Positions 21,301 through 58,118 of a DNA stretch of 64,000 nucleotides are shown piece after piece. Source of the stretch: Bilabrum cf. latius. Taxonomy: Eukaryota. Location: the NCBI GenBank assembly GCA_965178125.1, contig OZ237754.1, positions 868,001-932,000 of the forward strand, written 5' to 3'. Made by a program: the position numbers and the translations under genes. Each line of letters starts with the position of its first letter. The stretch's first letter is position 1. Below the pieces are notes generated by a model. It was not told the DNA's origin. It made no database searches and saw only the letters and a program-made list of their open reading frames with translations.

Positions 21301-24300
21301 GGGCTTCCTTCGTTGACCTTGTCCGCCTTGGGCGTGGGTCAGCGGGGAGGACTGAGCGGCGCGAGCTGCACCAGCATCTCTGCATTGTGCTGTTTGGTTT
21401 TGCTTGTGCGGCGCCCGCTGCCTGGGCTTCCTTCGTTGACCTTGTCCGCCTTGGGCGTGGGTCAGCGGGGAGGACTGAGCGGCGCGAGCTGCACCAGCAT
21501 CTCTGCATTGTTGCTGTTTGGGCTGGCTTGTGCGGCGCTCGCTGCCTGGTCTCCCTTCGTTGACCTTGTCCGCCTTGGGCGTGGGTCAGCGGGGAGGACT
21601 GAGCGGCGCGAGCTGCACCAGCATCTCTGCATTGTGCTGTTTGGTTTTGCTTGTGCGGCGCTCGCTGCCTGGGCTTCCTTCGTTGACCTTGTCCGCCTTG
21701 GGCGTGGGTCAGCGGGGAGGACTGAGCGGCGCGAGCTGCACCAGCATCTCTGCATTGTGCTGTTTGGTTTTGCTTGTGCGGCGCTCGCTGCCTGGGCTTC
21801 CTTCGTTGACCTTGTCCGCCTTGGGCGTGGGTCAGCGGGGAGGACTGAGCGGCGCGAGCTGCGCCAGCATCTCTGCATTGTGCTGTTTGGTTTTGCTTGT
21901 GCGGCGCTCGCTGCCTGGTCTCCCTTCGTTGACCTTGTCCGCCTTGGGCGTGGGTCAGCGGGGAGGACTGAGCGGCGCGAGCTGCACCAGCATCTCTGCA
22001 TTGTGCTGTTTGGTTTTGCTTGTGCGGCGCTCGCTGCCTGGGCTTCCTTCGTTGACCTTGTCCGCCTTGGGCGTGGGTCAGCGGGGAGGACTGAGCGGCG
22101 CGAGCTGCACCAGCATCTCTGCATTGTGCTGTTTGGTTTTGCTTGTGCGGCGCTCGCTGCCTGGGCTTCCTTCGTTGACCTTGTCCGCCTTGGGCGTGGG
22201 TCAGCGGGGAGGACTGAGCGGCGCGAGCTGCACCAGCATCTCTGCATTGTGCTGTCTGGTTTTGCTTGTGTGGCGTTCGCTGCCTGGTCTCCCTTCGTTG
22301 ACCTTGTCCGCCTTGGGCGTGGGTCAGCGGGGAGGACTGAGCGGCGCGAGCTGCACCAGCATCTCTGCATTGTGCTGTTTGGTTTTGCTTGTGCGGCGCT
22401 CGCTGCCTGGGCTTCCTTCGTTGACCTTGTCCGCCTTGGGCGTGGGTCAGCGGGGAGGACTGAGCGGCGCGAGCTGCACCAGCATCTCGGCATTTGTGCT
22501 GTTTGGTTTTGCTTGTGCGGCACTCGCTGCCTGGGCTTCCTTCGTTGACCTTGTCCGCCTTGGGCGTGGGTCAGCGGGGAGGACTGAGCGGCGCGAGCTG
22601 CACCAGCATCTCTGCATTTGTGCTGTTTGGGCTGGCTTGTGCGGCACTCGCTGCCTGGGCTTCCTTCGTTGACCTTGTCCGCCTTGGGCGTGGGTCAGCG
22701 GGGAGGACTGAGCGGCGCGAGCTGCACCAGCATCTCTGCATTGTGCTGTTTGGTTTTGCTTGTGCGGCGCTCGCTGCCTGGGCTTCCTTCGTTGACCTTG
22801 TCCGCCTTGGGCGTGGGTCAGCGGGGAGGACTGAGCGGCGCGAGCTGCACCAGCATCTCTGCATTGTGCTGTTTGGTTTTGCTTGTGCGGCGCTCGCTGC
22901 CTGGGCTTCCTTCGTTGACCTTGTCCGCCTTGGGCGTGGGTCAGCGGGGAGGACTGAGCGGCGCGAGCTGCACCAGCATCTCTGCATTGTGCTGTTTGGT
23001 TTTGCTTGTGCGGCGCTCGCTGCCTGGGCTTCCTTCGTTGACCTTGTCCGCCTTGGGCGTGGGTCAGCGGGGAGGACTGAGCGGCGCGAGCTGCACCAGC
23101 ATCTCTGCATTGTGCTGTTTGGTTTTGCTTGTGCGGCGCCCGCTGCCTGGGCTTCCTTCGTTGACCTTGTCCGCCTTGGGCGTGGGTCAGCGGGGAGGAC
23201 TGAGCGGCGCGAGCTGCGCCAGCATCTCTGCATTGTGCTGTTTGGTTTTGCTTGTGCGGCGCTCGCTGCCTGGGCTTCCTTCGTTGACCTTGTCCGCCTT
23301 GGGCGTGGGTCAGCGGGGAGGACTGAGCGGCGCGAGCTGCACCAGCATCTCTGCACTGTGCTGTTTGGTTTTGCTTGTGCGGCGCTCGCTGCCTGGGCTT
23401 CCTTCGTTGACCTTGTCCGCCTTGGGCGTGGGTCAGCGGGGAGGACTGAGCGGCGCGAGCTGCACCAGCATCTCTGCATTTGTGCTGTTTGGTTTTGCTT
23501 GTGCGGCGCTCGCTGCCTGGTCTCCCTTCGTTGACCTTGTCCGCCTTGGGCGTGGGTCAGCGGGGAGGACTGAGCGGCGCGAGCTGCACCAGCATCTCTG
23601 CATTTGTGCTGTTTGGGCTGGCTTGTGCGGCGCTCGCTGCCTGGGCTCCCTTCGTTGACCTTGTCCGCCTTGGGCGTGGGTCAGCGGGGAGGGCTGAGCG
23701 GCGCGAGCTGCACCAGCATCTCTGCATTGTGCTGTTTGGTTTTGCTTGTGCGGCGCTCGCTGCCTGGGCTTCCTTCGTTGACCTTGTCCGCCTTGGGCGT
23801 GGGTCAGCGGGGAGGACTGAGCGGCGCGAGCTGCACCAGCATCTCTGCATTGTGCTGTTTGGTTTTGCTTGTGCGGCGCCCGCTGCCTGGGCTTCCTTCG
23901 TTGACCTTGTCCGCCTTGGGCGTGGGTCAGCGGGGAGGACTGAGCGGCGCGAGCTGCACCAGCATCTCTGCATTGTGCTGTTTGGTTTTGCTTGTGCGGC
24001 GCCCGCTGCCTGGGCTTCCTTCGTTGACCTTGTCCGCCTTGGGCGTGGGTCAGCGGGGAGGACTGCGCGGCGCGAGCTGCGCCAGCATCTCTGCATTAGT
24101 GCTGTTTGGTTTTGCTTGTGCGGCGCTCGCTGCCTGGGCTTCCTTCGTTGACCTTGTCCGCCTTGGGCGTGGGTCAGCGGGGAGGACTGCGCGGCGCGAG
24201 CTGCACCAGCATCTCTGCATTGTGCTGTTTGGTTTTGCTTGTGCGGCGCCCGCTGCCTGGGCTTCCCTCGTTGACCTTGTCCGCCTTGGGCGTGGGTCAG

Positions 24301-35812: not shown

Positions 35813-38800
35813 TCACGCACTCCCAGACGCAGCTTCACCAGGCGCAATTACTTCCTTGTCCTCACCGCCGCCGCTGCTGGTTGACCTCCTCTTGGGCGAG
35901 ATTGAGGCGGCTCCTGCTCCGCGATAGATGGCGTTCTGCGAGCGGAACTCACCGGCGGGAGAGGCGCCTCCAGCGGTAGCCCCCTCGATGGAGGCGGCAC
36001 CCCGACGGTTCAAGGGGTCCACAGATTCATCAGGCGAAATCGGTGCAAGTTTAGCCGAGGCGCCTACTTGCGTGCTCGCAGCATCAGTTGACAATTCATT
36101 AGTGGCGGCAGAGTCAGGCGTGGGTTCCGCCTGCCTCTGCTAGTAGATGTACACGGCCATGGCTGCGACTGCCACCGCCAGCGCCACGATCGCAGCCGAG
36201 AGCCCTCCCACAACAGCAGAGCTCATACCGTCATTACCATTGGAGCCGTCGTCGGTGCTGTTGTCGTCGATGATGCCAGAGGTTGTGCCACCATCAGTAG
36301 CAGGAGCAACTTCGGGTGATGTGGCAGCGGCTGCCTGCGGGCTGGGCTGCGGGCTGGCTGCGGTGCCTGCATCGGACGACCCAGGAGATCCACCGGAGCT
36401 GGTGGAGCCGGTGCTGCCCGAGCTAGTCCCTGATCCACCGGTGGATGGTGAGGTCTGCTGCTGCTGCTGCAAGGTCACGATTGTCCCTGTGACGCCTTGC
36501 CTGGCTTCGAGGGACACAGTAGTTGGGTCCATGCGGCGGAGGTAGGTGCCGTAGGTACGCAGCACGCTCTCAGGGTCCTGCAGCTGGTTCTCGAAGTGGG
36601 ACACCACGGTCGCCATGCGTGCCCCGTCGGCAGTCTCCACGGTCTCGCTGTTGTCGTAGTCCCCGGTGTCAGTCGCAGAGATGGGCAGGATCGTGAAGTT
36701 CAGCCGAGCGTGCTCGGCGCCATCACCGACTGAATCCACGCCCTCCAGCTGAAGGCTGTCTACGCGCACGCGCCGCCCAGCGATAAAGAGGGTCCTGCTG
36801 AGGTCGCCCCTGATGTTGCTGATCATCGCATCAATCACGTTGGCGTCGCCCACGCTGTGAGTTAGGGTGTCCAGCGGCAGCTTCAGCACCACGGTGCCTT
36901 CCACGCGCGGCTCGCCAGCGCACGCAAACGCGTTGCATGCCCGATCCTGCAGAGGTGTAGACCCGATCACGTCCTCCTGCCTGTAGCATTCACCCAGTGG
37001 CACGGTTGTAGTATCCGCCTGCGTGGCGCCAGGAGCTGCCGTGGGACCGAGGGAAGCGCACTGCACCCGACGCACCTGCCTGCCTCCTCCGCACTCAGCG
37101 GTGCACTGGCTCCACTCGCCCACGGTGTAGAACAGCACATCGTCGGGGTCGCGAGGAGGCGCATCGCAGCCAGCGCCAAAAAAGCCGGGCTTGCAGTGGC
37201 ACTGGCCCTAGATGCAGATGCCGTCGTTCTTGCACGACACAGCCGAGCACTGGTCGCAGGTGTTGCAGTCGCGCGTCTCGAGAAGCACCGGACATGCCGC
37301 ACCCTCCCCCCTTGGAGCTCGAAGCACCTGCCTCTGCCGGGTTTGTGTTCCCTCGGCGCACACTTCATCGCAGTCGGACCATGGGCCCCACGGGCCAACC
37401 TGGCAGTCGGCCATGTCTGACAGCACGGACACATGAACGTCGGGTACCGATGTGTCAACGCCTGACCGCAACATGAGACCAGGGATGCGGATCTGCAGGT
37501 TCTCGTCCCCGTTGGGGTTGTAGTCAGGCACGGGAGGCAGGGTCACCGTAGCTCTCGTCATGCCGAAGGAGAAGCGCACAAAAGGAGATGCGCCAGGCGC
37601 GCTGTCTCGAAGCAAGATCGATGGTTGCGCCAAGGAGTTCCATCCGCTGGTTGACGTCTCCCTTGCCTGAATGCCCTTGATGAGCATGTTGGGCGAGATG
37701 GTGCGCGAGTTGACCATAGTGTCGATGTCAGCGATGGTGACGTTGCCGCTGTCAATGAGCCGTTCGAACTCTTCGCCCGTCATGGCCGCGCTGGGAGGCA
37801 AGCCAAGCTCTTGGCGGCGCCTCTCCTTCAGCTCCTTGGGGTCAACGAACTGGTCGCAAGATAGGTCCAGCTGCAGCTCCAGCCCGCCCGTCCTGACTTG
37901 CTCGGCGAGCACAGTGCCACCATCCCCACCCAGCATGCTACCACTAGCAAACACAGGGAAGGCAGAGAGCGCCTGCACCTGCAGAGTGGCTTGCACTGCG
38001 GCGGCTGGCGCCGTCAGACCGATCAGAATCCTGTCAGCCTCATCGTCATACCCGTCACTCTCCCATATCAGCATTCGCTATTCTCCGGTTCTATCAGGAG
38101 TTTGTGAGGCCCAGTCGGACGTCTCGGGACTGACAGGGGGCGAGAACCGGAGCACTGGGTCATCGGCGGACCGCCCCGCACGCGCTACGTGCAGCAGCAC
38201 CTCCCGCTTAGACACCATGGCATCACTCGCATCCACGCTCGACATGGTCACGTTTGCCGTGCACTGGGACTCGGCGTCTTCCCACGTGGCGTTGAGCGGC
38301 AGCGCACCGAGGGCCACAAGCGTCTGCCTGCACTCGTCTTTCGCAGCCTCAACAGCCGCACTCACGCGCTCGTTGCACACGTTCTTCTACACGCATGCGA
38401 TGTGTTCCGCGTGGCAGCCGGAGGCTGTGCGCGTGAGATTGGCCAGCGCCTCTCCCCCCGCTGCCACAGCACCTTCGTTTTCAGCCCTTGCCACGTGCAG
38501 ACAGCCCAGCATCCCGCTGTTGCAGGCACTCACCTCGCGCTCGGCTTCGATGGAGCATTTAATCTCTGTCGGAGCACGGCTTCTCGCGACTAGGCAAACG
38601 CCCTTGGTGGCTGCGTTGGGCTTCTCAAAGGAGAAGAAGGCGTTCTCGCCATGCTCCAGGTGCACCTCGGATTCCATCCCGCTGCGAAGCGCCTTAGAGT
38701 CAAAGTAGTTGATGTCGTACACGGTCTCCCTGCACATGTCCATGCCGCACACCTCCTGGCTGGCTGGCCTCAGCGTGCGATCGCAGAACCCCTCGTCCAC

Positions 38801-41800
38801 GGCGTGCCACTTCTGGCTGCGCTGGTCCGGGCACAGCTGCACGCGCCCGCTCTCTGTCTGCTCGAGACACGGCCCGCGCTGGGCACACAGCACCTCTCTT
38901 GACCTGACGCCGCCGCCGCAGCGGCGGCTACATGCCCGCCACTCATCAGCGTACCAGAACAGATCAGGGCATTCCTGCGTGTTGCATGGTTGGGTGGATA
39001 CGGGCGGGTCAGTGCAGTGAGCGTCCAGCACCAGCCTGCCTTTGCCTCCTCTGTTCCGGCACTCCAGCAGGCGACTCTGCTCGCCGCCGTCGCAAGGTTC
39101 ACTGCACGCGCCCCAACCAGAATCAGACCACTCGCACGTGCCCACATCGCACGCCTGCATTTCAGCGGGTCTGAGTGCCTCGTTGCACAGCGCCGAGTCC
39201 ACCACCAGCCCGCTCTGGGTCTGGCACCATACCGCTCTGGTCTGCTCCCCAGTGCCGCACTGCACGCTGCACTCTTTCCAAGCAGTGGAAGCCCACTCGT
39301 ACGTGTCGCAGACCCCTTCCACTGATAGACTACCTGCAAGCATGATCTGGAAATGAGCATCATCCCCAATCTTGTTCTGGCCGTCCACCGCAATGTAAAG
39401 CTCTTCCTCGTTGTACGCGCAGTTGGGCACGCTGAATGTGCGGGTGGCTGACGTGTCTTCAGCGTCCGCCATGCCGGGTGCGGCGGGTGCATCGGCACGA
39501 ACGCGCACTTTGTACGCAGCATCGCTAGGCTGGCCCATGGTGGTGATAGCAGCCACTGTGATGAGCATGTCTGACCTGGCAGGGAGCACCAGCCTCAGGT
39601 GCGTTGTGTCCTGCCCATCCGTGCTGACCACGCCGCACTCGCGCGATGCAACGTCACCAACAGCTACGCTACAGTTGACCATCCGCTGCCAGCGGCCCTG
39701 GTCAAAGCGGTCGAGTGGCACGTCGAAGATCCACGAGGCGTCTGCGTCCTGCAAGCGCCGTCCTTCGTGCCTATCAAGATGCAGCTGCTGCAACTCGCGA
39801 TGAATCTTTGTCAACTCCGGGTGGGTCTGCGCTGCCCGCCTCTGCTTCCAGCGCTCGCCGGTACCTGGCTGCACCCGCACCCTGTGATCAGTGGGCATGA
39901 GGGAGCGTCCGCTCTTGAGAGCCTCGGGCTCTTGGAGCATCTGCTTGATGGAATTGAGGGCGTGCAGGACCCCTTGCATGATAGCTTCCTCGCGGGCCAC
40001 TTCGAGATCGGTATCGTTGACTGCGGCCTCCGCTCGGCGCCCGCCGCTCGGCGCCTCTTCAAGCCCAGTGCTCTAGCGATCGGCGCTGCTGGACCACTGG
40101 ATCGCGTCATCATACGACACCTCCAGCCCGCCTCCCCGTGTTCCCTGTCGGAAGAGAAGCTCCCCGTCCTCCACGAGGCCAGTGGCCTCCATGGAGTCAA
40201 AGGCCTGCTCCAGGGCCTGCAGCTCAGCCAGCTCCTCCGCAGACGATCGCAGGGGCTCCTCGACCACATTGGATGCCCGGCGGCCCCCCTGCGTACTTGC
40301 ATCTATGCTCAGATCTGCCGTGCTGGTTCCCGACTGCTGCTCCCGGTCGCCTGGCCGGGTAGAGTCGTGGAAGTCCGACCTCGTGCCAATGATCATCTGC
40401 CGGGCCACGTCGGAGCCGGCCAGGTATGGCCTCTCCGCCGCCGCCACGTGCCCAGGTTCGATACCCTCCACTGAGATGCCAGCCAGCCCCTGCTCCACCA
40501 CAGGGAAGTACGTGTCTCTGGCGCCTGCGTACATGCCCATCGTGGATGGGGCATCCTTGGGCGACTGCACGCGGACGTTGAAAGACTGCTCTCCGCCCTC
40601 CGACGAAGAAAACACGGACTCGGCTGCGCCCACGAAATAGTTGTACTGCTCTGAGGCAATGCTCCGCTAAGTAGTCTTGCCCTGCTCCAGGCGCTCGTAC
40701 GCCTGCAGCGAGATCTCGAATTCGGCGCTGGCCTGAGCGTACACGGCGATCCACAGCTCCTCGGTGTAGTAGGTGTCGAGGCTGGAGATCACCACCTCGT
40801 CCAAGACCCCGGCGCGCTCTTTGCTCCTCCACATCCAGTCGTTGCGCGGGAAGCTCCGAAATACGCGGTGGTGCACGTACAGGTTGGCATCCCCCACGGT
40901 GGACCGAAGAGAGATGCGGGCTGCAGACGCGGTCGATGACACATGACCACGGAAGAGGTGGTAGCCCAGTGCCGGCACTTTTCCTGCGGCAGTGCGCCCG
41001 GGGAACAAGTCGCTGATTTCCATGCCGATGACGCCCATGCTGGAGCCCATGATTGCAAGCTTGGAGGAACATGCAAACGCGCCGGGGGAATATTCCCTGC
41101 CGGTAATGAGGAGGCTCAGCACGCCGGGAGCAGTAGCGGGGTGTTGTATGGCGTCCCACAGCCCGGGATTGTCGGCTGTGGGCCACCCTTCCTCTTCCTT
41201 GCGGTTGCATCGGAGGTCGAACCCTAGATTAAGGTCCTGCTCCACGCCGTCCTCCCAGTGGGGCTCCTTCTCCACCTCGGGTACGGGCGCGTCATCGAAC
41301 TCCAGCTCGCCATACGCCTCGTCTGCCGATGCAGCCAGGAAGAGCACACCGGTGGATTCCTCTGACGTCAGCAGCATAAAGTATCTCCGCTGCCCGTCGG
41401 TTACGTCGGTCTGGTTGCCCGCCAGTAGCGCGATGGCGTTGTAGTCCAGGATCTCCCTGGCACCCGTGGAGACCTTGATGGCGGAGCGGGCGGTGGCATC
41501 GAGCGTGCTCGAGTCATATCCCATGGACTCCAGAGTGCCGTCGTACAGCCATGGCTTGGTAAAATCGATGTCGGCGCACAGCCCCACGCTGAACGGAAGA
41601 TCAGCCTCGGCGATCCCCGGTGGCCAGTCGTAGGGCTCGACCCCTCTTTGCGACTCGATGGGATTGGCCCTGACCTGCGCGGCCTTCCCTGCCACTAGCT
41701 GCCTGAATGATGTGGCCTTGACCACGAACTCGACCTCTGCCTCGGGGTCCAAGTGCCTGGCGAACACGTACACCCGGGTGCTGGGCGTCAACCGATCGTC

Positions 41801-42961
41801 CTACCCAGTGACCATGGCGCTCATCTAAGAGTCGTAGGACCTGGTGATGGCGTACACCGATCGCATTCCCGACGGATCCGTGATGTCCTCGCCCTCTCCA
41901 TAGATTTCCAGGGACATCTTGCTGTTGCCCTGGGTCTTGGTCAGCCCCGCGTCCACCGCGTTATCTCCCTCTCGCATCAGCAGACAGCCGCGGTACCGGT
42001 TGGTGGTGTTGAGTCTGACACCGTGCCCTGGACCCGCGAAGAGGACGTGCCTCATCTGCCTGCGCACGGATCGGTCGAAGACGTGCGCGAACGGAGTCTC
42101 CCCACTGGCCTTGAGGTTGAGGCAGCTGCTCGAGCAGTCCTCTTCCAGCCGGGGCAGCTGCACGGGATCGCCAGTCGTTGGGTCGGTCTGGCACAGCTCC
42201 TCGGCTGCCAGAGTGCCGTTGCCTCCATGCGTGCGGCACTCGGCAACGCGGGTCCTCTTGCCCACGCCGCAGTCCACGCTGCACTCGGACCAGTCGCTGA
42301 TGGAGTACGCGCAGCCCTCCGTACCGCAGCTGAGCGAGATGGTGTTGGATTGAGAGCCTTGCAAGAATCGCAGCACCTTGATGTCTGCATCCTCGCTCAT
42401 GGCCTTGGAGCTTGCACCGGACAGCCGCCTGAAGCCGATCGACGAAGAGCTCGAGCCGTATCCAAGCTTAGGCGACACCGCGATGCCCATGAGCACACAG
42501 CCGATGAATCCAGCCCCATGCACTTTAAACTGAGGCACGATGGGGAACGAATAGGTGTACGGGAGTAATCCGCCGGACGGCAGCTCGAGAGGCTTGGTAA
42601 ATGGGCCAAAGCAAATGCCTTTGCATACCCGCGGGATGCCTAGCTACAGGACAATCTAGTTGATTGTGAGATGTCCATCGACCCCCATGTAGTAGTGGAT
42701 GTTCGTGTGACCATTTGCACACTCCGAAGGCCGCAGCGACATTGAAAGGTAGGGGTCAATGCTAGCGTCGAACTCCCAGTAGCCATACAGAGAAAACGTG
42801 GCCACCATGTACAGCTGGACCTTCAAATCCAGCGGGCCGGTCAAGTCAAAGCTTGGCTTGCGGGTCATGATGGTCATCGTGCGGTCTCGGATCATGCTCC
42901 ACCCAGTCCACCTTGAGTACTTCACGCCAACCGTCACGGAGTTGTCGAACCAGAAGCCAGG
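35813..42961 (-). CDS. TSP1/EGF membrane protein paralog (copy B), 5' part cut off by the virophage insertion
   Basis: Nine ORF fragments share one frame and are joined only by TAG. Collinear with copy A from PGFW.D.S.TVGV to the C-terminal ASGSA-TGA. Homology stops abruptly at 42961/42962. Confidence 0.85.
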
Positions 42962-43026
42962 TCTCACACACCACATACCAGGGGGACCTCCAAATTGGAG
43001 GTCCCCCTGGTATGTGGTGTGTGAGA
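42962..43026. repeat. Perfect terminal palindrome (32-bp arms, 1-nt loop) at the virophage left end
   Basis: TCTCACACACCACATACCAGGGGGACCTCCAA-A-TTGGAGGTCCCCCTGGTATGTGGTGTGTGAGA. Confidence 0.95.
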
Positions 43027-43317
43027 GTAGGGTATTTTTTATGTACATTTTTCTTTTGTTATAAGTAATTCTTTCCATAAAACGGGTAGAGGGTGGAAAT
43101 TTAAGTTGCTGAAAAATCATTTTTTTTGCAGGTGAAATTTTCAACTGCCAAAAATTACGCACTGAGTTACACTGCTACGTTTCACATCTCGGGTTCTATT
43201 CCTCTTGCAGAGGAGAGAAATTTGGGGGTCTCCATATTATTCTGCGGGGTCCCCCACGCGGGGGATGTTCAAAAATTCATTTAATATTGCATTGAGAAAT
43301 CACAGGGATTCTCATTT

Positions 43318-43983
43318 TCATTTTCCATTTTTCACTTTCATTGATTTTAATTTAATTCGCTGTTTCAACGCAGGTGCTGGTTCAGGTGCTGGTGCTGGTT
43401 CAGGTGCTGGTGCTGGTGCTGGTGCTGGTTCAGGTGCTGGTTCAGGTGCTGGTTCAGGTTCTGGTGCTGGTGCCGATCCAGATTCAGGTGCTGGTGCTCC
43501 TTCACTATCTACGGTGCCTAGCATTCGTGGTTTAGAAGCATAAGGCTATGCAAAACTATGCAAGTGTTTCATAATGCTCAGCATTTCCGAACGCTACTTC
43601 TTATCCTCCTTCTGCATCTACACCATTGCATCATACTATTTCTATTGCATCTACATCATTGCAAACATCAGTTGCGTTACCTAATTAGGTTCTTGTGGTG
43701 CTGGTGCTGGTGCTGGTGCTGGTGCTGGTGCTGGTGCTGGTGCTGGTGCTTGATCAGGTTCTGCAGTTCCACCAGATTCACAAAGTGGTGATGTGCCTTC
43801 CGGCTACTTCACCACCGCATGAAATGCTCTGATTATGCTATCCGATTTCTTCCCCTCATGCCACCAATCCGTGCCAATATTGGTTTGCATCCATTTCTTC
43901 ATATCATACTCCGAAACAAGTGATTTGTAACCTTTTCCAAAGTGTTTTTGTAAATATTCTCGTGCTTTCTGTGGGTATCTCAT
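43318..43983 (-). CDS. Virophage protein: N-terminal 'MxYP..HFG..YK.LVSE..W..DWW' domain, PA/EPA repeats, Gln/Met-rich segment (TAG=Gln)
   Basis: ATG at 43983 to TGA at 43318, one frame via TAG. Reads MMQMQQKQYDAMVQMQKEDKKQ with TAG as Gln. N-terminus is paralogous to that of the 45128 ORF. Confidence 0.7.
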
Positions 43984-44369
43984 ACTGATATCCTCTCCCT
44001 TACATGCGCACACGAAATAGGTTCAGGGGAATTCATTTTGTTACCTAAAAGGTTCTGTATACATCTTACTGCCCAATCAAAAAAAAAGTTATTTGGATGT
44101 TGTTCAGAAAAATCTCATGTTGTTCAAAATACTCGGTTTCATAAAAATTTTCAGAACTCAGCCAACTGAAAAAAATATTGATTTTCAATTTTTTTCTAAG
44201 AATGAAAAAATCTCATTTCCTTTGTTTTGAACAACATCCCTACCTTTTCCGACAACAAAACCTTTATTTTGAACAACATTTTGAACAACATAATTATTCG
44301 TAACCAATTATTTTGAACAACATTTTGAACAACAACAAATAAATTGATTAATGCAGTTACTGATATCTT

Positions 44370-44420
44370 ATTTATATTAGATTATAGGATTTTTAAAAAA
44401 TCCTATAATCTAATATAAAT
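44370..44420. promoter_or_regulatory. 25-bp-arm AT-rich palindrome overlapping a TCTA motif and the ATG of the repeat protein
   Basis: ATTTATATTAGATTATAGGATTTTT-A-AAAAATCCTATAATCTAATATAAAT. Confidence 0.6.
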
Positions 44421-45042
44421 GAATTCGAATTTTAATACATGTCCTTGTTGCCAAAAACCGGTCTCAAATGAAGATCTAATTATTCAACCAGATGGTACTC
44501 ACTTTTGGTATAAGAATGGTCAAATACACAGAGATGGTGATCTACCTGCAGTAGTTGGTATGAAGGGTAACTACTGGTACAAGAATGGTAAAATACACAG
44601 AGATGGTGATCAGCCCGCAGAAATTACATTAAATGTACGCGGATACTACAAGAATGGTCAATTACACAGAGATGGCGATCAGCCCGCGTACATGTACAAT
44701 TCAGAAAATAGAAAATATTGGTATAAGAATGGCGTATTGCACAGAGATGGTGATAAACCCGCAATAATTGAAATAGATGGAGATACAAAATGGTACAAGA
44801 ATGGCAAATTACATAGAGATGGTGATAAATACGCAGTAATTAATGAATATGGAAATGAATGGTACAAGAATGGCGAATTGCACAGAGATGGTGATAAACC
44901 CGCAATAATTGAAATAGATGGAGATACAAAATGGTACAAAAATGGTAAATTACACAGAGATGATGATAAACCCGCAGTAATTGAAGCATATGGACGAAAT
45001 GAATGGTACAAAAATGGTGTACAATACCATCCATCCATTTAA
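44419..45042 (+). CDS. Repeat protein with ~7 WYKNGxLHRDGDxPA units (MORN/YwqK-like beta-hairpin repeats)
   Basis: Repeats are directly visible, with an N-terminal CPCC. Ends TAA. Confidence 0.85.
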   Translation: MNSNFNTCPCCQKPVSNEDLIIQPDGTHFWYKNGQIHRDGDLPAVVGMKGNYWYKNGKIHRDGDQPAEITLNVRGYYKNGQLHRDGDQPAYMYNSENRKYWYKNGVLHRDGDKPAIIEIDGDTKWYKNGKLHRDGDKYAVINEYGNEWYKNGELHRDGDKPAIIEIDGDTKWYKNGKLHRDDDKPAVIEAYGRNEWYKNGVQYHPSI

Positions 45043-45127
45043 ACTAGATTGCTTTATAAAAGCTTGGAGCGGAAAAATGAACCGCGTTCACCCTATTTCT
45101 CGCAGGTATAGGAGGGGGAGTATCACA

Positions 45128-47044
45128 ATGATATACCCTACTAAAGCACATGAATACCTATCAACACACTTTGGAACTGATTACAAAACATTAGTTTCAG
45201 AGGCTACTATAAAGCAGTGGATGCGAACACATATTGGTGCAGATTGGTGGCTTGATTACTTGAAAGCAGATAGCATTATAAAAGCGTATCATGCGGTGTT
45301 GAAAAAGCCTACAAGCACTTCAACACTAGATGAACCCAAAACTGCTGCTACTGGTGAAGGTGCAAACCCCAAGATCAAGATCAAGATCAAGATCAACCCC
45401 AAAACCAAAATCTCACTCAAAAAGAAAAAAGGTAAATCTATAATGAGCTCCGCAAAATCGAAACCTCAAGAAATACTAGTTAAACCTATAATAACCGATC
45501 AAACCGCACAGAAAATGGTTGGTGAATTTGTTAATGCAGATCACTACCAGCAGGTAATTGATCATGATTGTGATTGCTACTACTATGATAAATCTGGCAA
45601 GCGCCGTGCTTTGTTTTACTTTCGCCGCAAGGTAATCCCCCAAGCGCATCTGGATACAGCACTAGATAGTTTAAAAACAGAAGCCAAAAGTGCCTCCAAT
45701 ACACGATCCATTGCTGGTGGCGGAATTGGCAAAGGCAAAGTACACAGCATGATTGTTGGCTACTACGATAAACCCCGAATCAGAGATAAACGAGAAATCT
45801 TAGCCAAGAAACTCGTACCCTGCAGAACTACCAGCTATACCAGCAAATACCAAGCCAAATGGAACAACTTAAAACCATTAATTAATTAGGTTGATAAGGC
45901 ATACAGCGAGTTCGAACCAGAACGCCATCACGAACAGCACGGCATGGCTAAAAAAACTCCCGATTACCAAATCAACGATACTGCATTTTCTACCATCACC
46001 GTAAATTACAACTGGCGAACCGCTTGCCACAAGGATTCAGGTGATTATCACAATGGATACAGTGCTGTAGTAGTTGCCGAGGATGGCAAGAATTCTTACA
46101 AGGGCGGATACCTGGGTTTTCCTAAGTTCGGCGTTTGTGTTGATGTTCGCCACGGCGATTTTATCTTAATAGATCCTCACCAGTTGCACTGTAATACAGA
46201 AATAGTGCCAGATGGATCAGATTGGTGCAGATTATCAATGGTTTACTACTACCGAGAAAACATGCAAAAATGTACCCAATCCAAACCTTCTAGTAAAGCC
46301 GCCTCACAAGAATTAATTGATGTAGTTTTACCCAAACGAAAACTCGATCTTAAACTCTGGGTTCGCCCCAAAACCACAGATCAAACTGTAATTGGTGAGG
46401 TGCTTACCAGGAACTCTTACGATAAACCAAAAGTTTAGTTCGAAGTGGGATCTGATCCAAAGGAACGATGGCTAGATCTTGGTGCCAATATCGGCACATT
46501 CGCCTTACTTGCCTTATCGCGGGGGTGCTCTGTTACCTGCTATGAACCAGAACGGGATAACCTTGAAATACTACAAAAAAACCTGGAACTCAACTTTCCT
46601 AAACCTAGGGGTGGATGGAAAATTGTTGAATCAGGGGTTTCTACAAAACCCACTGGAACTCAAAAACTCTACCTGTGCAAAGGAGATTACAACAAATACA
46701 GGCATACCTTGCATCCCGTAAGAGGGCGTACAACTGTTGATATCCCTGTAGAAAATATTTTTGAGGCTTTGGAACGGGCTGATTGCAACTGCATTAAAAT
46801 GGATATCGAGGGTGCTGAAATCGAGATCCTCGAAACACTTAAACCAGCAACTTACCAACACCATGGCATCCAAAAACTGGTGTTAGAATATAGTTTTGAT
46901 GTAGATAGGAGCATCCCCCGTTTCCTACGCATCATCGAAACCTTAAAACAAGCCTTCAAAACCGTGTTTTACACCAAAGTAAAGCCAGATCAGGCTACCT
47001 ATGATTACTTTCCAGCAGCCTGTATGGTATACTGCCAGAATTAA
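45128..47044 (+). CDS. TET/JBP-like 2OG-Fe(II) oxygenase fused to an FkbM-like SAM methyltransferase (638 aa, TAG=Gln)
   Basis: Three ORFs in one frame joined by TAG (45887, 46436). Oxygenase motifs FSTITVNYNWRTACHKDSGD, GGYLGFP, HQLHCNT, RLSMVYYYRE. Methyltransferase motifs WLDLGANIGTF, YEPE, IKMDIEGAE. Confidence 0.8.
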
Positions 47045-47154
47045 ATCCCATGAAAATTAAAATATTAGTGAAATGCCTAGGCATCTACTCAGAGAAATAC
47101 ACATTTTGCTTTTAATCCGTATCAATTTAGTACGGGATTAAAAGGAAAATTACA

Positions 47155-48366
47155 TTACTTTTTCCACGTAAACGTCCATTTGTTTGTACGTGGATTCTTT
47201 TTCCATTCTACTTTGTGCTTCTTTTCAAATGCCTAAACCAGTTTGGGCACATCTTCGATCATGTTTTCATAGCTGTTCCACTCTGGAACCTTGTATCCAA
47301 CCCATCGAACCACAAATCCACGCTCCCCATTAACCACACTAGGGCGCACAATACTCGAAATAATATACTAATCTGGCAAAGTAATTGGATTTTCAACCTC
47401 ATCCACCTTCTGCAATTCCTCTGTAAAATATCTGGTTGGCAATCCTTCTACCTAATAGGACCACGGACTCCACGGCATACGCGGTTTTAACACCTATCTT
47501 ATAGTATACACATCCTTAGACCAGTTTTCACCCCTTTTCTCATTAGATCCCCATCGCAATCGAACCCTTACTTGATCGCCCACTTTGAACCGCTACTCAT
47601 TGGCACGTTCACCTGCATTTTTCTTTATTCTTTTTCTAACTGCATCCACTCCAGAACTCTGTTTGTTCTCCAGATACTCCCTCTCTAAATTATCTGGCGA
47701 TTGCTTGGTTGTATTTTGTGGCGTTTGATTGTATACCCTCAAATAGGCTGCCAAACTATTATCCCAGTTATTCACACCCGAATCCAAGCGATCCGCCTTA
47801 ATCATTCTCTTAATTGTTCCATTAAATCTCTCAACCAATCCATTGGTTTGCGGTTTACCCGCTGTACTCAAGATCTATTTAATTTTCTTGCTTTTTAAAA
47901 ATGCTTTAAATGCTCGATTTACGAACTCACTGCCATTATCACTCTACAACACACTGGGTGGTTGGGGCATCTACTCTAAGATTTGTTTCAAAGCATTCAA
48001 TACGGTTTGCTCTCGCTTATCGGGCATGGCAATTGCGTAAGCTTTCTTACTAAAACCATCGATGGCTGTTAGCAACCATTTCATGCCTCGTGGGGTTTCC
48101 GATGAACTCAAATCCACCAAATCTATTTGCAACTTTTTAAAAGGAGCACTAATTACCTAGCGTTTAATTGAACGAACTTTCTTGGTTGGTTTCATCATTT
48201 GCCATGTTTCTTGCTTTTGCAACCAATCTCTAACCACACGCCGTGGCAAATCAATGCCGTTCTGAATCGCAAACTTGTATAATTTTTCCTCACCTACAAA
48301 GGCTTTTGAACCATAATATAACTCTTTCAACTTCTATAATTCACGTTGCTGATGCTTTGTATCCAT
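47155..48366 (-). CDS. rve (retroviral-type) integrase with C-terminal chromodomain (403 aa, TAG=Gln)
   Basis: DDE triad QIDLVD, L(Q=TAG)SDNGSEF, NGLVERFNGTIK. Followed by FKVGDQVRV. Chromodomain-like YIISSI..FVVRWVGY..W. Ends TAA. Confidence 0.92.
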
Positions 48367-49589: not shown

Positions 49590-50894
49590 TTAGTATCCAC
49601 GCAAACGCCTAATACGATCCTATTGAAACTACCTTTCTTGGGCTTCTTTGCCTTGTAACCCGGCACGGCGTTCAGATTTATTGATTCTCCGATGTGATTT
49701 TGGTGCAATTGCTTTCAATCCTTTATCACCGATTACCTTGCGCAATGGAGCTCCAACCAATCCATCAAACAAAAATCGCCCAGCATCCTCAATGATTCCT
49801 TTGCCTTTCATATTCGATTGTTTCACAGCCTTAAATGCCTGTTTCATTGCTTCTCCACGGCTCAATTTAGGATTCTAGCGCCTCATCTATCCAGCTAAAC
49901 GCAATGCCTAGGATTGTAATGTACGATTCCATTTACCCGATTTCGGTGCACCCATACCCTATGTACCCTCCGCTGAACCTAAGTTACCCATTGTGTTTGC
50001 GGTTAACCTATCTGGTTCTGTGGTTTGCCTACTTGATCTGCGTCGTGCAGGAGCTGGTGCAGGAGCAGGAGCAGGAGCTGGTGCAGGTGCAGGAGCAGGA
50101 GCAGGTGCAGGAGCTGGTGTAGGATCATTATCGGAATCACCGCCAGGTCCTGGTCCGCCAGGAGCAACATCAGCAGCCCGAGCACGAGGAGCACGAGCAG
50201 GAGATCCTGCAAAACCTTGTTCCATCTATTCTGCGAGATCAGCTGCTGGTACCAACTATGGCACTGGTATTCGTGCTCCTCGTCTTCGTGCCCGTGCCCG
50301 TGCAGGTGCAGGTGCCGGTTCAGGTACTGAATCAATAATCCAAGGTTCGATATCTACTCTTCGTGGACGCTCTCCCACAGGATTTGAACCCTCTTCTGGT
50401 ATTTCTCTCATTGGATCACGATCCACACGATTGGGATTACGCTTGATTGCATACTACAATGCATCTCGAACTCCATTTTCAATTAGTAACCTTCGTATTG
50501 CCTAATTGCTTCCTCTATTAACATTTAAACGCTTAAACTAGGCTTCTATCTCTTTAAGGCTCTTGGGCAAAATAATATCACCACTATACAAACTCACTTC
50601 TAAGGCATCTATTACTCTCTGCCTACTAGTTGCCGTTCTTGCCCTCTATAACTAGCCCAATAATGCTTTAACCCGCCCAGTTGCCTAATCATTTCTGGTA
50701 CGTTCAAGTTCACTCACCACACCTGCCTTTCTCAATCTCTCTTGATCTTGTTGCTCTTTACGTGCTCGGTTTTCCTGCCTCACACGGCGGTTGTTTTCCT
50801 CCATGTTTTCTCTTCTTTGTTCTGCTAAACCGGAGTATCTCTCAATTGTTAGCTCTTTAAGAATCTTTCGCAACTTTTCATCGCTTTTTGCCAT
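49590..50894 (-). CDS. Arg-rich protein with coiled-coil and PA repeats, possible virion core protein (434 aa, TAG=Gln)
   Basis: ORFs 50685, 49959 and 49629 share one frame joined only by TAG. ATG 50894, TAA 49590. Confidence 0.7.
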
Positions 50895-50932
50895 ATATAA
50901 TAACATTGAAAATATTTTATATACCTATAGTA

Positions 50933-53492: not shown

Positions 53493-55220
53493 ATGTCTCA
53501 AACCTTAAGACAAAGTTTACCAGTAAGTGTGGCAGTTGATCCAAAGTACAACTTCCTCGATCCTTCCAGAGTAAAACAACAGGTAGAAGCAGGTAACACC
53601 AAGATTGGTTACAACCGCTTAACCTTTACTGATCCTGTTGCAAATGGTGCAACCTTGAATATGACTATAAATCCAGTAAAAGGTAATTTCAATCAACCTA
53701 CTTTAAGATACATTCAACGAGTTCGAGTGGCTAAGGCAAATGCTGCTGCCCTTGCTCTAGCAGATTTAAAGAGCAGAGTTGGTGTTAAACCTTTCCCCTT
53801 GGCTAGAATGTTTGATCGTACCATTGTGGATCACAATGGTTCTACTTGGGTGAGTGAGAGTTACTAGGAAAGCAAAGAGTTTGCTCATAACCACGATCCA
53901 GAGATTGGTTACCGAATGAGCCCTGCTCCTGTTCCTGATAAAAACACTGCATATAGCCGTGATTATCTCAGTGATCCACTCCGCGTTTCATTAGATACAA
54001 TTGATTAGAACGAATCCCGTGGTTTCGGCAACCGTTACTCTGTATACTATGTTGGTCCAGCTGCTGGCAACTCACACGAATTCCTCATTATTCTGGAGGA
54101 GCGCCTATGGAACAAGTTTTTCCCTTTCAAGGATGCCTATCCTAATCCTTACAAGAACCTGCAACCGTTCGATCTCAAACTTGAGATTGGTTCTAATGGA
54201 TTATAGCGCATATGGTCTGCCTCAACTGTCGGCGGACAGGATTTAGCATTTACCCAAGTTGGTAACCCATCCCTGTTTCTGGATTTCACTATCGATACAC
54301 CTGCGCTTGAAGTTCCTCAACCAAACAGAATTGTGCTAAACTCAGTACATCGCCAAAAGCGTTAGGAACGCCCTAACCAGGCTATTCCAGCCGCTGCAAA
54401 CGGTGTGCCAGGCAGCATTGAGCACCAGATGTAGTCTTATGATTTCGCATACACACCAGAAATGTTGCTGTGTTACGTGGAACGCGATCCTGTGGCTGGA
54501 AGCAACTAGCCTGATTAGTTTTTACCCATTTCTGCCATCAACCTAACCATCAATGGTGAACAAGATATTGGCAGGTTGATTTCCCAGTATGAACTCTGGC
54601 AAATGAGCACCAAAAACGGATATAACGGCAGATTCGGGCATTTCGCTGGTTTAATCTAGGATTTCTCAGTTGGTGCCAACCGAATTTACGGCAACGGTTG
54701 CATGTTGGCAATAAAACCATCCCAATTGCCTCTGCCTCAGGAAACCCAAGGTGGTGTGAATGCTAGATTCTCTATCTAGGCTACTGTTACTATCCAGAAC
54801 CCCACTGGTGCTGCAGTGGCAGCTGGTAGTTACCGCTTATGGATGATTCTAGCCAACTCCGAAGCCAATTACCTCAAAGACGGTTTGATGGAGAGCCGTG
54901 TGTTACTTGCCGATCCAGTTAAGAGCCTAACCGCTACTAATGTTACTTACAAAGATGATGGAGTATCTGCCTCAATCGTGGGTGGAAGGCGTGGTTTCTT
55001 CGGTCGACTGTGGAACGGAATCAAGAAAGCAGCCCCAGTGCTTAAAGAGGTTTCTAAAGTTGCCCGTAACCTACCTATTGTAAAGAATTATGTTGGTGAT
55101 AATACCGCTGTGGGTAAAGTTGCCAAAGCAGTGGGTGCTGGAAAAAGGGGTAAAGGCGTAAATCGGGTGGCTGGTAAGAGCGTTTCTACTCAAGCACTTT
55201 TAAGCAAACTTGGAATGTAA
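53493..55220 (+). CDS. Major capsid protein (double jelly-roll, virophage type; 575 aa, about nine TAG=Gln)
   Basis: One frame from ATG to TAA. Motif FLPISAINLTING...QYELWQMSTKNG. C-terminal IVGG followed by a basic, amphipathic extension. Confidence 0.9.
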
Positions 55221-57743: not shown

Positions 57744-58118
57744 ATGCACAATTATGAATATATTGAAATTAAACCATCTCAAATCCATGGACATGGCGTG
57801 TTTGCTCGATGCAAGATTGCCAAGGGCACTAAATTAGCCTATTTTTACGGCATACCCATGAAACCCAAAGATATCATGCTCAAATACGGCAACTACCGTT
57901 TTACATATCGGCGCCCATTTCAAAGCACATGGATTTGCAGCAGAGAAACACCCAATCTAATCAATTTTGTTAACTCTGTGGGCTTTGGTAAATCCAAAGG
58001 AATGAAAGCAAATGTTATTCTCAAAAACAGATGGCTAGTTCCCATCCGAGATATCCAAGCTGGTGAAGAATTACTGCTCGAATATCCTAAGGGATACTGG
58101 AAGCACGGCGATGATTAA
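57744..58118 (+). CDS. Stand-alone SET-domain lysine methyltransferase (vSET-like)
   Basis: IKPSQIHGHGVFA..IAKG, FVNS (for NHS), RDIQAGEELLLEY. 124 aa. Confidence 0.85.
   Translation: MHNYEYIEIKPSQIHGHGVFARCKIAKGTKLAYFYGIPMKPKDIMLKYGNYRFTYRRPFQSTWICSRETPNLINFVNSVGFGKSKGMKANVILKNRWLVPIRDIQAGEELLLEYPKGYWKHGDD

Follow-up and report, generated by a model that had tools for sequence, protein, structure and literature searches.

The gene at positions 45128-47044 (+ strand) of the 64,000-nt stretch of DNA analyzed here (hereafter, the window) encodes what is, by its sequence, a true oxygenase of the TET/JBP type joined to a true methyltransferase of the FkbM type, and it belongs to a low-GC, multicopy endogenous virophage. 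The fusion had been proposed in a first-pass annotation of the same DNA, and it was borne out in that both halves passed the cut-offs of curated profiles. We see an even chance that the product acts as a single bifunctional DNA-base-modifying enzyme of this virophage, which would oxidize a 5-methylpyrimidine and then O-methylate it.

The gene, its reading frame and the virophage element

Under translation table 11, the locus is split into three ORFs (44990-45889, 45944-46438 and 46445-47044, the last one with a GTG start). When TAG is read as a residue, a single frame of 638 aa runs from 45128 to 47044 (+) and ends at a TAA stop, which confirms the frame previously traced through two TAGs, at codons 254 and 437. 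On the basis of Pfam and NCBIfam matches, the whole gene comprises an N-terminal domain, a Lys-rich linker, a TET/JBP dioxygenase and an FkbM-type methyltransferase. The TAG at codon 254 (45887..45889, +) lies within the TET domain and is crossed by the Pfam match to aa 231-377, and that at codon 437 (46436..46438, +) lies in a conserved block on the N-terminal side of the methyltransferase domain and immediately precedes the invariant F438.

TAG is a sense codon in this element. In-frame TAGs amount to 101 per 6219 codons and are spread over 20 of the 22 ORFs, and the stops of the 21 complete ORFs are TAA (15) or TGA (6) and in no case TAG. The 10 TAG sites of the integrase correspond to Q (7), E (2) and H (1) in the 79%-identical homologue P0094, and one conserved integrase TAG site is Q in 11 of 15 homologues; judging from these alignments, TAG is most likely decoded as Gln. 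The host reads TAG as a sense codon, as the virophage does, so that standard gene callers break the target gene and most other genes of the element. A sister copy, present in two public assemblies, carries AGT (Ser) instead of TAG at codon 437, with five synonymous and three further non-synonymous codon changes in the vicinity. The reading as a single protein thus follows from the use of TAG as a sense codon, from the position of TAG437 in a conserved block and from Ser437 in the sister copy amid mostly synonymous changes, and also from the homologues, since 45 of the 91 homologue clusters have both domains in one ORF. A paralogue on the minus strand (43318-43983) with identical opening residues backs the start at 45128.

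The label of virophage given by the first-pass annotation held, as the element encodes a major capsid protein (MCP; 53493..55220, +) with an MCP_V20_C domain (E 3.8e-15). An rve-type integrase gene (47155..48366, -; PF00665, E 1.7e-19) adjoins the target gene; the integrase has 24 homologues, several of them with precomputed chromodomain (PF00385) matches. The candidate FtsK/HerA-type packaging ATPase gave sub-threshold matches only (Pox_A32, E 0.0047), the putative cysteine protease matched the virophage contig L002 with 29.5% identity (E 2.3e-9), the putative penton was assigned by position alone, and a SET-domain gene is present. A search for MCP relatives in IMG/VR returned 21 pattern matches, none of which was confirmed, and with the MCP as query a word-index search of proteins returned no match at E <= 1e-10, an overly strict threshold.

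The N-terminal domain and the Lys-rich linker are specific to this element. The former (aa 1-60; 45128..45307, +) is an orphan helical domain common only to the neighbouring ORF 43318-43983, with 59% identity over 69 aa, and missing in all 22 aligned homologues; its AF2 model depicts helices with pLDDT values of 50-75. In a full HMMER scan against 1.84 billion representatives, this domain had two weak matches, both Ig-repeat proteins, which were judged spurious. The linker (aa 61-110, KIKIKIKINPKTKISLKKKKGK; 45308..45457, +) is disordered, with a pLDDT of 30-42. Its Lys-rich stretch is possibly a nuclear-localization signal and, speculatively, both regions may act in nuclear or DNA targeting of the enzyme. 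The paralogous ORF (43318..43983, -) encodes 221 aa, includes 8 TAG, and continues from the shared N-terminal domain into Pro-Ala repeats. An inverted duplication with 214-nt arms that are 72% complementary (left arm 43777..43990, -; right arm 45121-45334) spans the coding start of the target gene and of its paralogue, and about 55 nt of upstream leader align too. Among upstream k-mers, no convincing shared promoter motif was found; the leaders of these two genes are GC-richer, whereas those of other element genes are AT-rich.

Oxygenase and methyltransferase domains

The TET/JBP (5-methylpyrimidine dioxygenase) domain was delimited to aa 111-385 (45458..46282, +) by PF12851, Foldseek and phrog_24024. 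The Tet_JBP profile (PF12851) matched aa 231-377 with 87.5 bits against a cut-off of 34.9 (E 7.2e-25), phrog_24024 matched the domain with an E value of 3.7e-59, and the profile of our homologue alignment (A1) matched TET2 with E 9.3e-5. Foldseek, a structural check put forward in the first-pass annotation, gave nucleic-acid TET enzymes as the best matches of the double-stranded beta-helix fold, and not the prolyl or sugar hydroxylases that would have spoken against the annotation: the top ones were TET2 (7ne3_A, E 1.5e-10), CcTet, NgTET1 and CMD1, with E values from 1.5e-10 to 8e-9, and ranks 1-24 among the matches listed were taken exclusively by these four. The first other oxygenase in the list was FTO (E 4e-6), itself a nucleic-acid demethylase.

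The motifs reported earlier in the two halves of the protein (HKDSGD, HCNT, RLS, DLGANIG and KMDIEGAE) were all present, on columns invariant in 23 of 23 aligned homologues. In the oxygenase, H301-K-D303-S-G-D306 (46028..46045, +), also invariant in 23/23, includes the predicted His and Asp iron ligands plus a further Asp, and is aligned to TET2 H-R-D-L-H-N. The predicted third iron ligand, H354 of HCNT (46187..46189, +), is invariant and aligned to the distal His of TET2. The segment R368-L-S-M-V-Y-Y374-Y-R376 (46229..46255, +), aligned to TET2 R-I-S-L-V-F-Y-Q-H, contains the putative 2-oxoglutarate Arg, the stacking Tyr and an Arg replacing the TET2 His, and R368, Y374 and R376 are invariant. 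The pair C232-R233 is invariant in the forms of eukaryotic viruses and missing in the phage forms; its Arg is a possible counterpart of TET2 R1261 / NgTet1 R224, which is named as a conserved Arg in the accessible part of a previous work (PMC8256090).

The methyltransferase domain (aa 395-638; 46310..47041, +) was assigned to a subfamily of FkbM SAM methyltransferases through TIGR01444, PF05050, phrog_28597 and Foldseek. Scores were 60.1 bits against a cut-off of 37.7 for TIGR01444 fkbM_fam (E 3.2e-16) and 32.1 bits against 22.7 for PF05050 Methyltransf_21 (E 1.5e-7), and phrog_28597 matched with E 2.8e-25. In the SAM motif D450-L-G-A-N-I-G456 (46475..46495, +), D, G, N, I and G are invariant, and D450, G452 and G456 are so across the phage partners as well. 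The FkbM signature K557-M-D-I-E-G-A-E564 (46796..46819, +) has invariant K, D, I, E, G and E and is aligned to IKMDIEGSE of 2py6; D-x-G-x-x-x-G plus K-x-D-x-E-G-x-E are the motifs that we take to define the FkbM family. The subfamily is marked by the blocks R..T.D.K...EV.....Y, N..[YW]R[HN][ST] and FE[YW]SFD.D.S..R.

The model of the methyltransferase domain, a class I Rossmann fold, has a pLDDT of 94.1, and its top Foldseek match was the FkbM protein 2py6 (E 1.2e-6). In VIA, 2py6 (Z 12.9, rmsd 2.9) was tied with tRNA, rRNA and cobalamin-pathway class I methyltransferases with Z of 12-13, so that fold searches give no substrate clue. With a pTM of 0.49, the full-length model does not predict the mutual arrangement of the TET and methyltransferase domains. 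A role for Cys636, conserved and C-terminal, as the catalytic residue of a C5-methyl transfer was considered and set aside on grounds of topology only, namely that of class I methyltransferases. Enzymes of the FkbM type are described as O-methyltransferases acting on hydroxyl groups in the accessible part of PMC12085832.

Homologues, gene neighbourhood and candidate substrate

The first-pass annotation had placed the oxygenase and the methyltransferase in one pathway. Fusion, together with the widespread adjacency of both genes in other viruses, supports such a shared, putatively two-step pathway. Beside the clusters in which both domains form one ORF, stand-alone TET proteins account for 45 of the 91 homologue clusters. 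The rarity implied earlier did not stand, since the same fusion was found in a second virophage contig, L002, and viral TET-like genes are already in preprints (polinton-like viruses and an endogenous giant virus). The hosts of the module include virophage L002, contigs with NCLDV-type capsids, giant-virus MAGs and tailed phages. The 80 IMG/VR loci kept from 167 relatives, whose ranking by the whole-fusion query biases them towards loci with both genes, comprised two fusions, 61 pairs less than 300 nt apart and seven pairs within 3 kb, and in ten of them (7 of 27 clusters) the methyltransferase was without a TET gene in the stretch covered; at 70% identity, the pair was kept in 20 of the 27 clusters. 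The TET gene followed the methyltransferase gene in 56 of these 61 adjacent pairs, and the methyltransferase partner belonged to one orthologous subfamily across all hosts.

In the phage cassettes, a ParB-like gene was present in 51 of the 80 loci and adjoined the methyltransferase in 43; its profile (A5) matched ParB 4umk with E 2.1e-7. ParB-dependent DNA T-dioxygenases of phages have been characterized experimentally, according to the accessible part of PMC13229309, and the ParB-like gene beside the phage pair, as in those systems, places the module on DNA. The top shared neighbours of the pair were ParB-like, terminase and small unknown ORFs. No glycosyltransferase was found among its conserved neighbours or among the element ORFs scanned with Pfam, and no ParB-like ORF was found in the six frames of the window (A5 profile, E <= 1). 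When metagenomes were scanned with the A1 alignment, the matches listed were for the most part generic FkbM genes, with a best identity of 34% among them, and added no context for the fused forms. In BFVD, viral TET and FkbM proteins occurred only separately, with no full-length match to the fusion.

Thymine had been regarded in the first-pass annotation as a plausible substrate, and this is weakened by D306. This invariant residue, the third after H-x-D, is aligned to TET2 N1387, the position of NgTet1 D234. In the accessible part of a study of NgTet1 (PMC4678852), D234 contacts the N4 amino group and makes modified cytosine the preferred substrate, and the activity of a D234N mutant shifts towards thymine. 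Given the NgTet1-like Asp306 and an Arg376 that is able only to donate hydrogen bonds, 5mC is the more probable substrate; 5mC rather than thymine is thus weakly favoured by these predicted base contacts, in a rule that is not absolute, as TET2 carries Asn yet acts on 5mC. At the base-contact position, the forms of eukaryotic viruses have Asp and those of phages have Asn, and this difference between groups would fit a methyltransferase that recognizes the common 5-CH2OH group and not the base.

As a further exception to the Asp/Asn rule, a C5-methylase was encoded nearby in 5 of the 80 loci, each of which has the phage type with Asn. None was found in the six frames of the window with one phage C5-methylase sequence as query, PF00145 gave no match in three searchable viral records, and a Pfam scan that covered 20 other ORFs of the element revealed no DNA methylase. 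The element extends past the end of the window, and a methylase further on is possible. The observed/expected CpG ratio was 0.75 in the element and 0.87 in the host, a mild depletion that is not decisive.

Proposed function and comparison with known systems

In the pathway that we propose, the TET/JBP domain would act after replication, as an Fe(II)- and 2-oxoglutarate-dependent enzyme that hydroxylates a pyrimidine of finished DNA at its 5-methyl group, a step well supported by homology. The FkbM-subfamily methyltransferase, with SAM, would then O-methylate the new hydroxymethyl group to produce a 5-methoxymethyl-pyrimidine, and the methyl cap would protect the base from further oxidation, glycosylation and repair. 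The 5mC would be supplied by host methylation of the integrated element or by a methylase encoded outside the window, and the pay-off would be the conversion of a silencing mark into one that is recognized neither by host readers nor by host or giant-virus nucleases. A bolder version, which we offer tentatively and hold to be rather doubtful, is that the fusion makes 5-methoxymethylcytosine (or 5-methoxymethyluracil), an unreported natural base, to cap the host 5mC mark on the integrated virophage, in a pathway that is cross-realm. The capped mark could not be processed by readers of the host, by its demethylation and repair pathways or by nucleases, and the same two-enzyme chemistry would be common to virophages, giant viruses and tailed phages.

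It is unlikely, in our opinion, that the TET domain is an eraser only, oxidizing host-deposited 5mC to start demethylation, with the methyltransferase being directed at a protein or a small molecule. This role has been proposed for viral TET-like genes in the accessible parts of two preprints (10.64898/2026.10.09.758095; 10.64898/2026.06.19.733378), and it would suit an element that is integrated in a eukaryotic genome, is multicopy and carries a SET-domain gene suggestive of an interest in chromatin, as well as the 45 of 91 clusters with stand-alone TET proteins. However, two unrelated activities would not be kept fused or side by side in virophages, giant viruses and phages alike, and lytic phages, which are free of 5mC gene silencing, retain the same pair. 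We find it improbable that the FkbM-like domain works before the oxygenase, as an unrecognized DNA methyltransferase making the 5-methyl substrate for TET and replacing the C5-methylase that accompanies phage 5mC dioxygenases, even if phage TETs pair with a substrate-supplying methylase in the accessible part of PMC8256090. The gene order in 56 of 61 adjacent pairs agrees with it, as does a canonical C5-methylase in only 5 of 80 loci, with none found in the window. Yet FkbM-family members are O-methyltransferases, those five loci hold a normal C5-methylase plus the pair, and the ParB-associated phage forms resemble thymine dioxygenases, for which no methylase is required. Moreover, giant viruses expressing FkbM proteins, perhaps of another subfamily, were without methylated DNA sites by SMRT in the accessible part of 10.1101/2019.12.21.884833.

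The chances that RNA is the target are slim. On that model, taken from the cellular hm5Cm/f5Cm or the ALKBH8-type tRNA pathways, m5C (or m5U) would be oxidized and the ribose 2'-OH or the oxidized base methylated, and ALKBH8 is indeed a known tRNA-acting fusion of an oxygenase with a methyltransferase. The near folds of the methyltransferase include tRNA/rRNA enzymes such as Trm5a (Z 13.3), TYW2, RlmLK, fibrillarin and TrmR, but they tie with unrelated class I methyltransferases; the oxidase is nearest to DNA-acting TETs, and the phage versions adjoin ParB-like and terminase genes, a class shown to act on DNA. Slimmer still are the chances that another enzyme glycosylates the oxidized base and that the FkbM domain O-methylates the sugar. 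Phage 5mYOX is most often partnered by glycosyltransferases (31% of pathways in the accessible part of PMC13229309), FkbM relatives often methylate sugars, and the domain matched Pfam V_cholerae_RfbT (E 4e-4, below the cut-off) and WbdD. This is at odds with the lack of a glycosyltransferase among the conserved neighbours of the pair and the scanned element ORFs.

If, as we propose, the methyltransferase caps the TET product, this would be a one-protein pathway to an unreported DNA base, and O-methylation would join glycosylation and phosphorylation with amino-acid transfer as a tailoring of 5-hydroxymethyl-pyrimidines, of which carbamoylation is another known example. Since phages share the module with giant viruses and virophages, any one result would be relevant to each of these groups. 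As regards endogenous viruses, it would suggest in concrete terms how a virophage integrated in its host could evade or rewrite the cytosine methylation of that host.

Part of this is known already, as TET-like genes in small eukaryotic viruses are the subject of preprints and the co-occurrence of O-methyltransferases has been tallied; in the accessible text of PMC13229309, they are listed among the domains co-occurring with phage 5mYOX. The fusion and the biochemistry of O-methylation were not found in print, and the supplements of PMC13229309 (Dataset S10) and PMC8256090 may list PF05050 beside 5mYOX. We found no literature joining JBP with FkbM and, among the titles listed, none on methoxymethyl DNA bases, and the giant-virus literature, in its accessible parts, lists FkbM genes as of unknown function.

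In the phage 5mYOX/TET hypermodification clusters (accessible parts of PMC8256090 and PMC13229309), as proposed for the target, a post-replicative TET/JBP oxidase makes a hydroxymethyl handle for a tailoring enzyme. In contrast to those clusters, oxidase and tailoring enzyme are here one polypeptide in a virus of eukaryotes, no ParB-like gene or C5-methylase was found in the window, and the base-contact residue is Asp and not Asn; the target gene is a relative of the ParB-dependent phage T-dioxygenase cassettes, not a member. A TET-like dioxygenase in a host-integrating eukaryotic virus is likewise found in polinton-like viruses and in the endogenous giant virus punuivirus, whose genes are proposed to counter host 5mC silencing (10.64898/2026.06.19.733378; 10.64898/2026.10.09.758095), and a start of demethylation is the role proposed for polinton-like viruses and for the endogenous giant virus of Chlamydomonas, all in the accessible parts of these preprints. 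The polinton-like virus and punuivirus genes stand alone there, with FkbM unmentioned in those parts, whereas the target is fused and lies in a virophage with a Sputnik-type capsid.

With NgTet1 and human TET2, the target shares the H-x-D...H triad, the 2-oxoglutarate Arg and the stacking Tyr, and its Asp is that of NgTet1 D234. However, identity is only 11-13%, an Arg stands for the TET2 His, there is only a very short variable insert (aa 189-205, with low pLDDT), and a methyltransferase is fused C-terminally. Like FkbM-family O-methyltransferases (TIGR01444 / PF05050; 2py6), the second half passes the family cut-offs and has the SAM and K-x-D-x-E-G-x-E motifs, but its subfamily (phrog_28597) is distinct, with conserved blocks of its own, and almost always TET-linked. 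To our knowledge, ALKBH8 has no homology to the target beyond the superfamily level; it joins an AlkB-type oxygenase to a Trm9-type methyltransferase and modifies the wobble uridine of tRNA, with methylation before hydroxylation. As is proposed here for DNA, it is one protein in which a 2OG/Fe(II) oxygenase and a SAM methyltransferase act successively on the same nucleobase side chain.

The virophage element and its genetic code

Base composition divides the window into a part of ~62% GC (bases 1 to ~43200) and one of ~40% GC that runs from ~43200 to the window end. The low-GC segment is a virophage-like element that extends past the window end. Its major capsid protein (53493-55220, +; MCP_V20_C, E 3.8e-15) is of the V20 type, and the capsid gene is preceded upstream by putative genes for a penton, a cysteine protease and a packaging ATPase. 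The element also encodes an rve integrase (47155-48366, -; E 1.7e-19), a GIY-YIG nuclease and a DUF5906 primase-helicase-like ORF. A small SET-domain gene (57744-58118, +; PF00856, E 6.2e-5, just above the cut-off) without TAG codons is possibly, by its domain match, a second candidate chromatin-directed function alongside the TET fusion. In the assembled contigs of two public sequencing studies (X1 and X5), the depth of the element over the stretch compared (42855-47100) was 4-5x that of the host flank (~95 vs 22 in X1, and 5-8 vs 2 in X5), and the element is therefore multicopy. These contigs also contained at least one diverged second copy of the fused gene, with 14 differences within 46383-46465.

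Under translation table 11 the element shows few long ORFs, while nearly all its genes open when TAG is read as a residue. There were 101 in-frame TAGs in 6219 codons, distributed over 20 of the 22 defined ORFs, and the 21 complete ORFs ended in TAA (15) or TGA (6), never in TAG. At the ten TAG sites of the integrase, the 79%-identical homologue P0094 carries Q (7), E (2) or H (1), and the best-conserved site is Q in 11 of 15 homologues. Since these homologues mostly have Q at such sites, glutamine is the best reading of TAG in the element. The host nuclear code likewise has TAG as a sense codon, with TAA and TGA remaining as stops, because a host gene (35813-43120, -) for a large TSP1/EGF-repeat membrane protein (2435-aa frame, domains at aa 270-1987) holds ten in-frame TAGs, one of them within an EGF-like match.

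A perfect palindrome (42962-43026; 32-nt arms, 1-nt loop) lies at the host/element border, and the X1 and X5 contigs are broken at 43369-43503 and 43687-43761. Two virophage ORFs (43318-43983, -, and 49590-50906, -) contain long GC-rich Pro-Ala/Pro-Glu repeat tracts despite the 40% GC of the element. On the host side, the AT skew is strong and sustained over 18000-24000 (-0.36 to -0.56) with a positive GC skew, which suggests a strand-biased repeat block.

The fused gene and its domains

The gene at 45128-47044 (+) is a frame of 638 aa that includes two TAGs, codons 254 and 437. The first lies within the Pfam TET match (aa 231-377), and the second in a conserved block, immediately N-terminal of the invariant F438. 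In the second copy found in the assemblies of both studies, codon 437 is AGT (Ser), and the neighbouring sequence shows five synonymous and three more non-synonymous codon changes and no indels. On this sequence evidence both TAGs are read through, and the possibility that the two domains are made as separate proteins, which the first-pass annotation had named as refuting its proposal, thus falls for this gene. At the left end of the element, a paralogue (43318-43983, -) opens with the same residues (59% identity over 69 aa), which supports the start at 45128. The gene and its paralogue are arranged as an inverted duplication (43777-44040 / 45075-45334) that includes a leader of ~55 nt; the other genes have AT-rich leaders, whereas this one is higher in GC and carries an upstream ATG and GTA[AT][GA]G strings resembling splice donors. 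Between the two genes lies one for a MORN-like repeat protein (44419-45042, +; YKNGxLHRDGDxPA repeats) that lacks TAG codons and whose start codon is reached by another perfect palindrome (44370-44420, 25-nt arms). A related MORN-like gene occurs near the methyltransferase/TET pair in phage locus L022.

The identities first proposed for the two halves, TET/JBP oxygenase and FkbM-type methyltransferase, were borne out by profile searches (Tet_JBP, E 7.2e-25, and Methyltransf_21, E 1.5e-7, in Pfam; fkbM_fam, E 3.2e-16, in NCBIfam). The full-length AlphaFold model, built on an alignment of 23 sequences, had a mean pLDDT of 82, with aa 58-109 disordered, and a pTM of 0.49, so that it does not predict how the domains are placed relative to one another. 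In Foldseek against the PDB its top matches were human TET2, Coprinopsis CcTet, Naegleria NgTET1 and Chlamydomonas CMD1 (E 1.5e-10 to 8e-9), followed by FkbM 2py6 (E 2.2e-6), and the first non-TET oxygenase was FTO. The family profile matched TET2 at E 9.3e-5, placing H301-x-D303-x-x-D306 on TET2 H-R-D-L-H-N and R368-L-S-M-V-Y-Y-Y-R376 on TET2 R-I-S-L-V-F-Y-Q-H. Modelled alone, the methyltransferase domain (pLDDT 94) was a class I Rossmann methyltransferase with FkbM 2py6 as best Foldseek match; since VIA tied 2py6 at Z 12-13 with several others, among them Trm5a, CbiT and TYW2, the fold gave no clue to the substrate, and it is the sequence profiles and motifs, not the fold, that establish FkbM membership.

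The N-terminal 105 aa were present in none of the homologues of the 91-cluster protein search and alignment. In most fused homologues an insert of ~30-40 aa separates the N-terminal lobe from the core; it is missing here (aa 189-205, 45692-45742) and in homologues P0002, P0005 and P0007, and may be the region of the "variable insertion" that PMC13229309 links to ParB dependence in the phage TET-like enzymes (5mYOX).

Distribution of the oxygenase/methyltransferase pair

The protein search yielded 91 clusters, 45 with PF12851 and PF05050 in one ORF (503-655 aa, query aa ~110-638), 45 with PF12851 alone and one with PF05050 plus another domain. In IMG/VR, 167 stretches encoded a relative. Among the best 80 of these, counted with HMMs built from those loci, there were two fusions, 61 pairs less than 300 nt apart, seven within 3 kb and ten methyltransferases alone; at 70% identity the pair was kept in 20 of 27 clusters, and these fractions lean high because loci were ranked with the whole fusion as query. 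The methyltransferase preceded the TET gene in 56 of the 61 close pairs and followed it in five.

The pair occurs in varied carriers. One is L002, a virophage contig of 15.5 kb (Sputnik_MCP_1st, E 1.1e-12; MCP_V20_C, E 5.5e-9) in which the fusion directly follows the capsid gene and precedes a GNAT gene; L001 lies on a 260-kb contig beside XRN, DEAD-helicase and cadherin/SH2 genes; L003-L005 and L012 belong to giant-virus MAGs, and the records behind L006 and L010 contain NCLDV-type capsid genes. About 50 of the best 80 loci are tailed-phage contigs, with the large terminase as a conserved neighbour and, immediately upstream of the methyltransferase, a third gene that is ParB-like (profile vs ParB 4umk, E 2.1e-7). 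It was found in 51 of the best 80 of 167 loci, adjoining the methyltransferase in 43, and phage loci among L018-L080 (e.g. L036:8439-10469) present a tight cassette of overlapping ORFs, ParB-like, FkbM-type methyltransferase and TET-like dioxygenase in this order. In all carriers the methyltransferase belongs to one orthologous subfamily, with common blocks well beyond the SAM site.

Proposed chemistry and relation to known systems

According to PMC13229309, 5mYOX include DNA thymine dioxygenases, and one subclass requires a ParB-like activator. This ParB-like/dioxygenase arrangement recurs in the phage relatives of the pair studied here, which argues that the module acts on DNA; RNA as the target is very improbable. 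The oxidases fall into a eukaryotic-virus type (H-x-D-x-G-D and ...Y-[YL]-R), to which the window enzyme belongs, and a phage type (H-x-D-x-[GA]-N and ...Y-[PS]-L). As described in PMC4678852, the equivalent D234 of NgTet1 contacts the N4 amino group and sets the preference for modified cytosine, while TET2 has Asn there and the D234N mutant shows ~2x thymine activity. We infer that the window enzyme prefers 5mC, and that thymine, or both bases, may be the substrate of the phage partners; in five of the best 80 of 167 loci, all phage-type, a C5-cytosine methylase also lies no more than a few kb away. The suggestion of thymine as a plausible substrate is thus weakened, as Asp306 points, if weakly, to modified cytosine.

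The TET-type domain is predicted to oxidise a 5-methylpyrimidine in DNA to the 5-CH2OH form. The methyltransferase would then recognise 5-CH2OH, common to both oxidised bases, which is the simplest reading because it is constant while the base contact of the oxidase changes. As FkbM enzymes O-methylate hydroxyls (PMC12085832), the predicted product is a 5-methoxymethyl-pyrimidine. Sugar capping is the least probable alternative. In all, the original proposal is supported in part: the two domains and their fusion hold, and the widespread pairing favours two successive steps on DNA as the probable pathway.

Some observations count against this chemistry. A source of 5mC was not found: single-sequence and small-profile queries gave neither a C5-methylase nor a ParB-like ORF in the six frames of the window, and no C5-methylase turned up in the three viral records searched. 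CpG depletion in the element is mild, and the lack of a substrate clue in the methyltransferase fold also weighs against the proposal. An anti-silencing eraser, in which the TET domain would oxidise 5mC and the methyltransferase would be unrelated, is unlikely. The TET gene is missing at ten of the best 80 of 167 methyltransferase loci, which also speaks against oxidation followed by methylation. A methyltransferase acting first is improbable.

Concerning known systems, we found no published account of a TET/FkbM fusion or pair in the article texts searched, nor any report of a natural methoxymethyl DNA base. For polinton-like viruses (10.64898/2026.06.19.733378) and an endogenous giant virus in which gene loss accompanies 5mC gain (10.64898/2026.10.09.758095), TET-like genes have been described, and the text of these reports that was searched makes no mention of FkbM. 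FkbM genes of giant and polinton-like viruses are listed in 10.1101/2019.12.21.884833 and PMC12085832 with no function assigned there, and O-methyltransferases are listed, not studied, among the 5mYOX co-occurring domains in PMC13229309. New from the window are the virophage setting, with L002 as a second virophage example, the Asp/Asn split of the oxidase, the N-terminal domain specific to the element, and the presence of the element as endogenous multiple copies in a host that itself reads TAG as sense.
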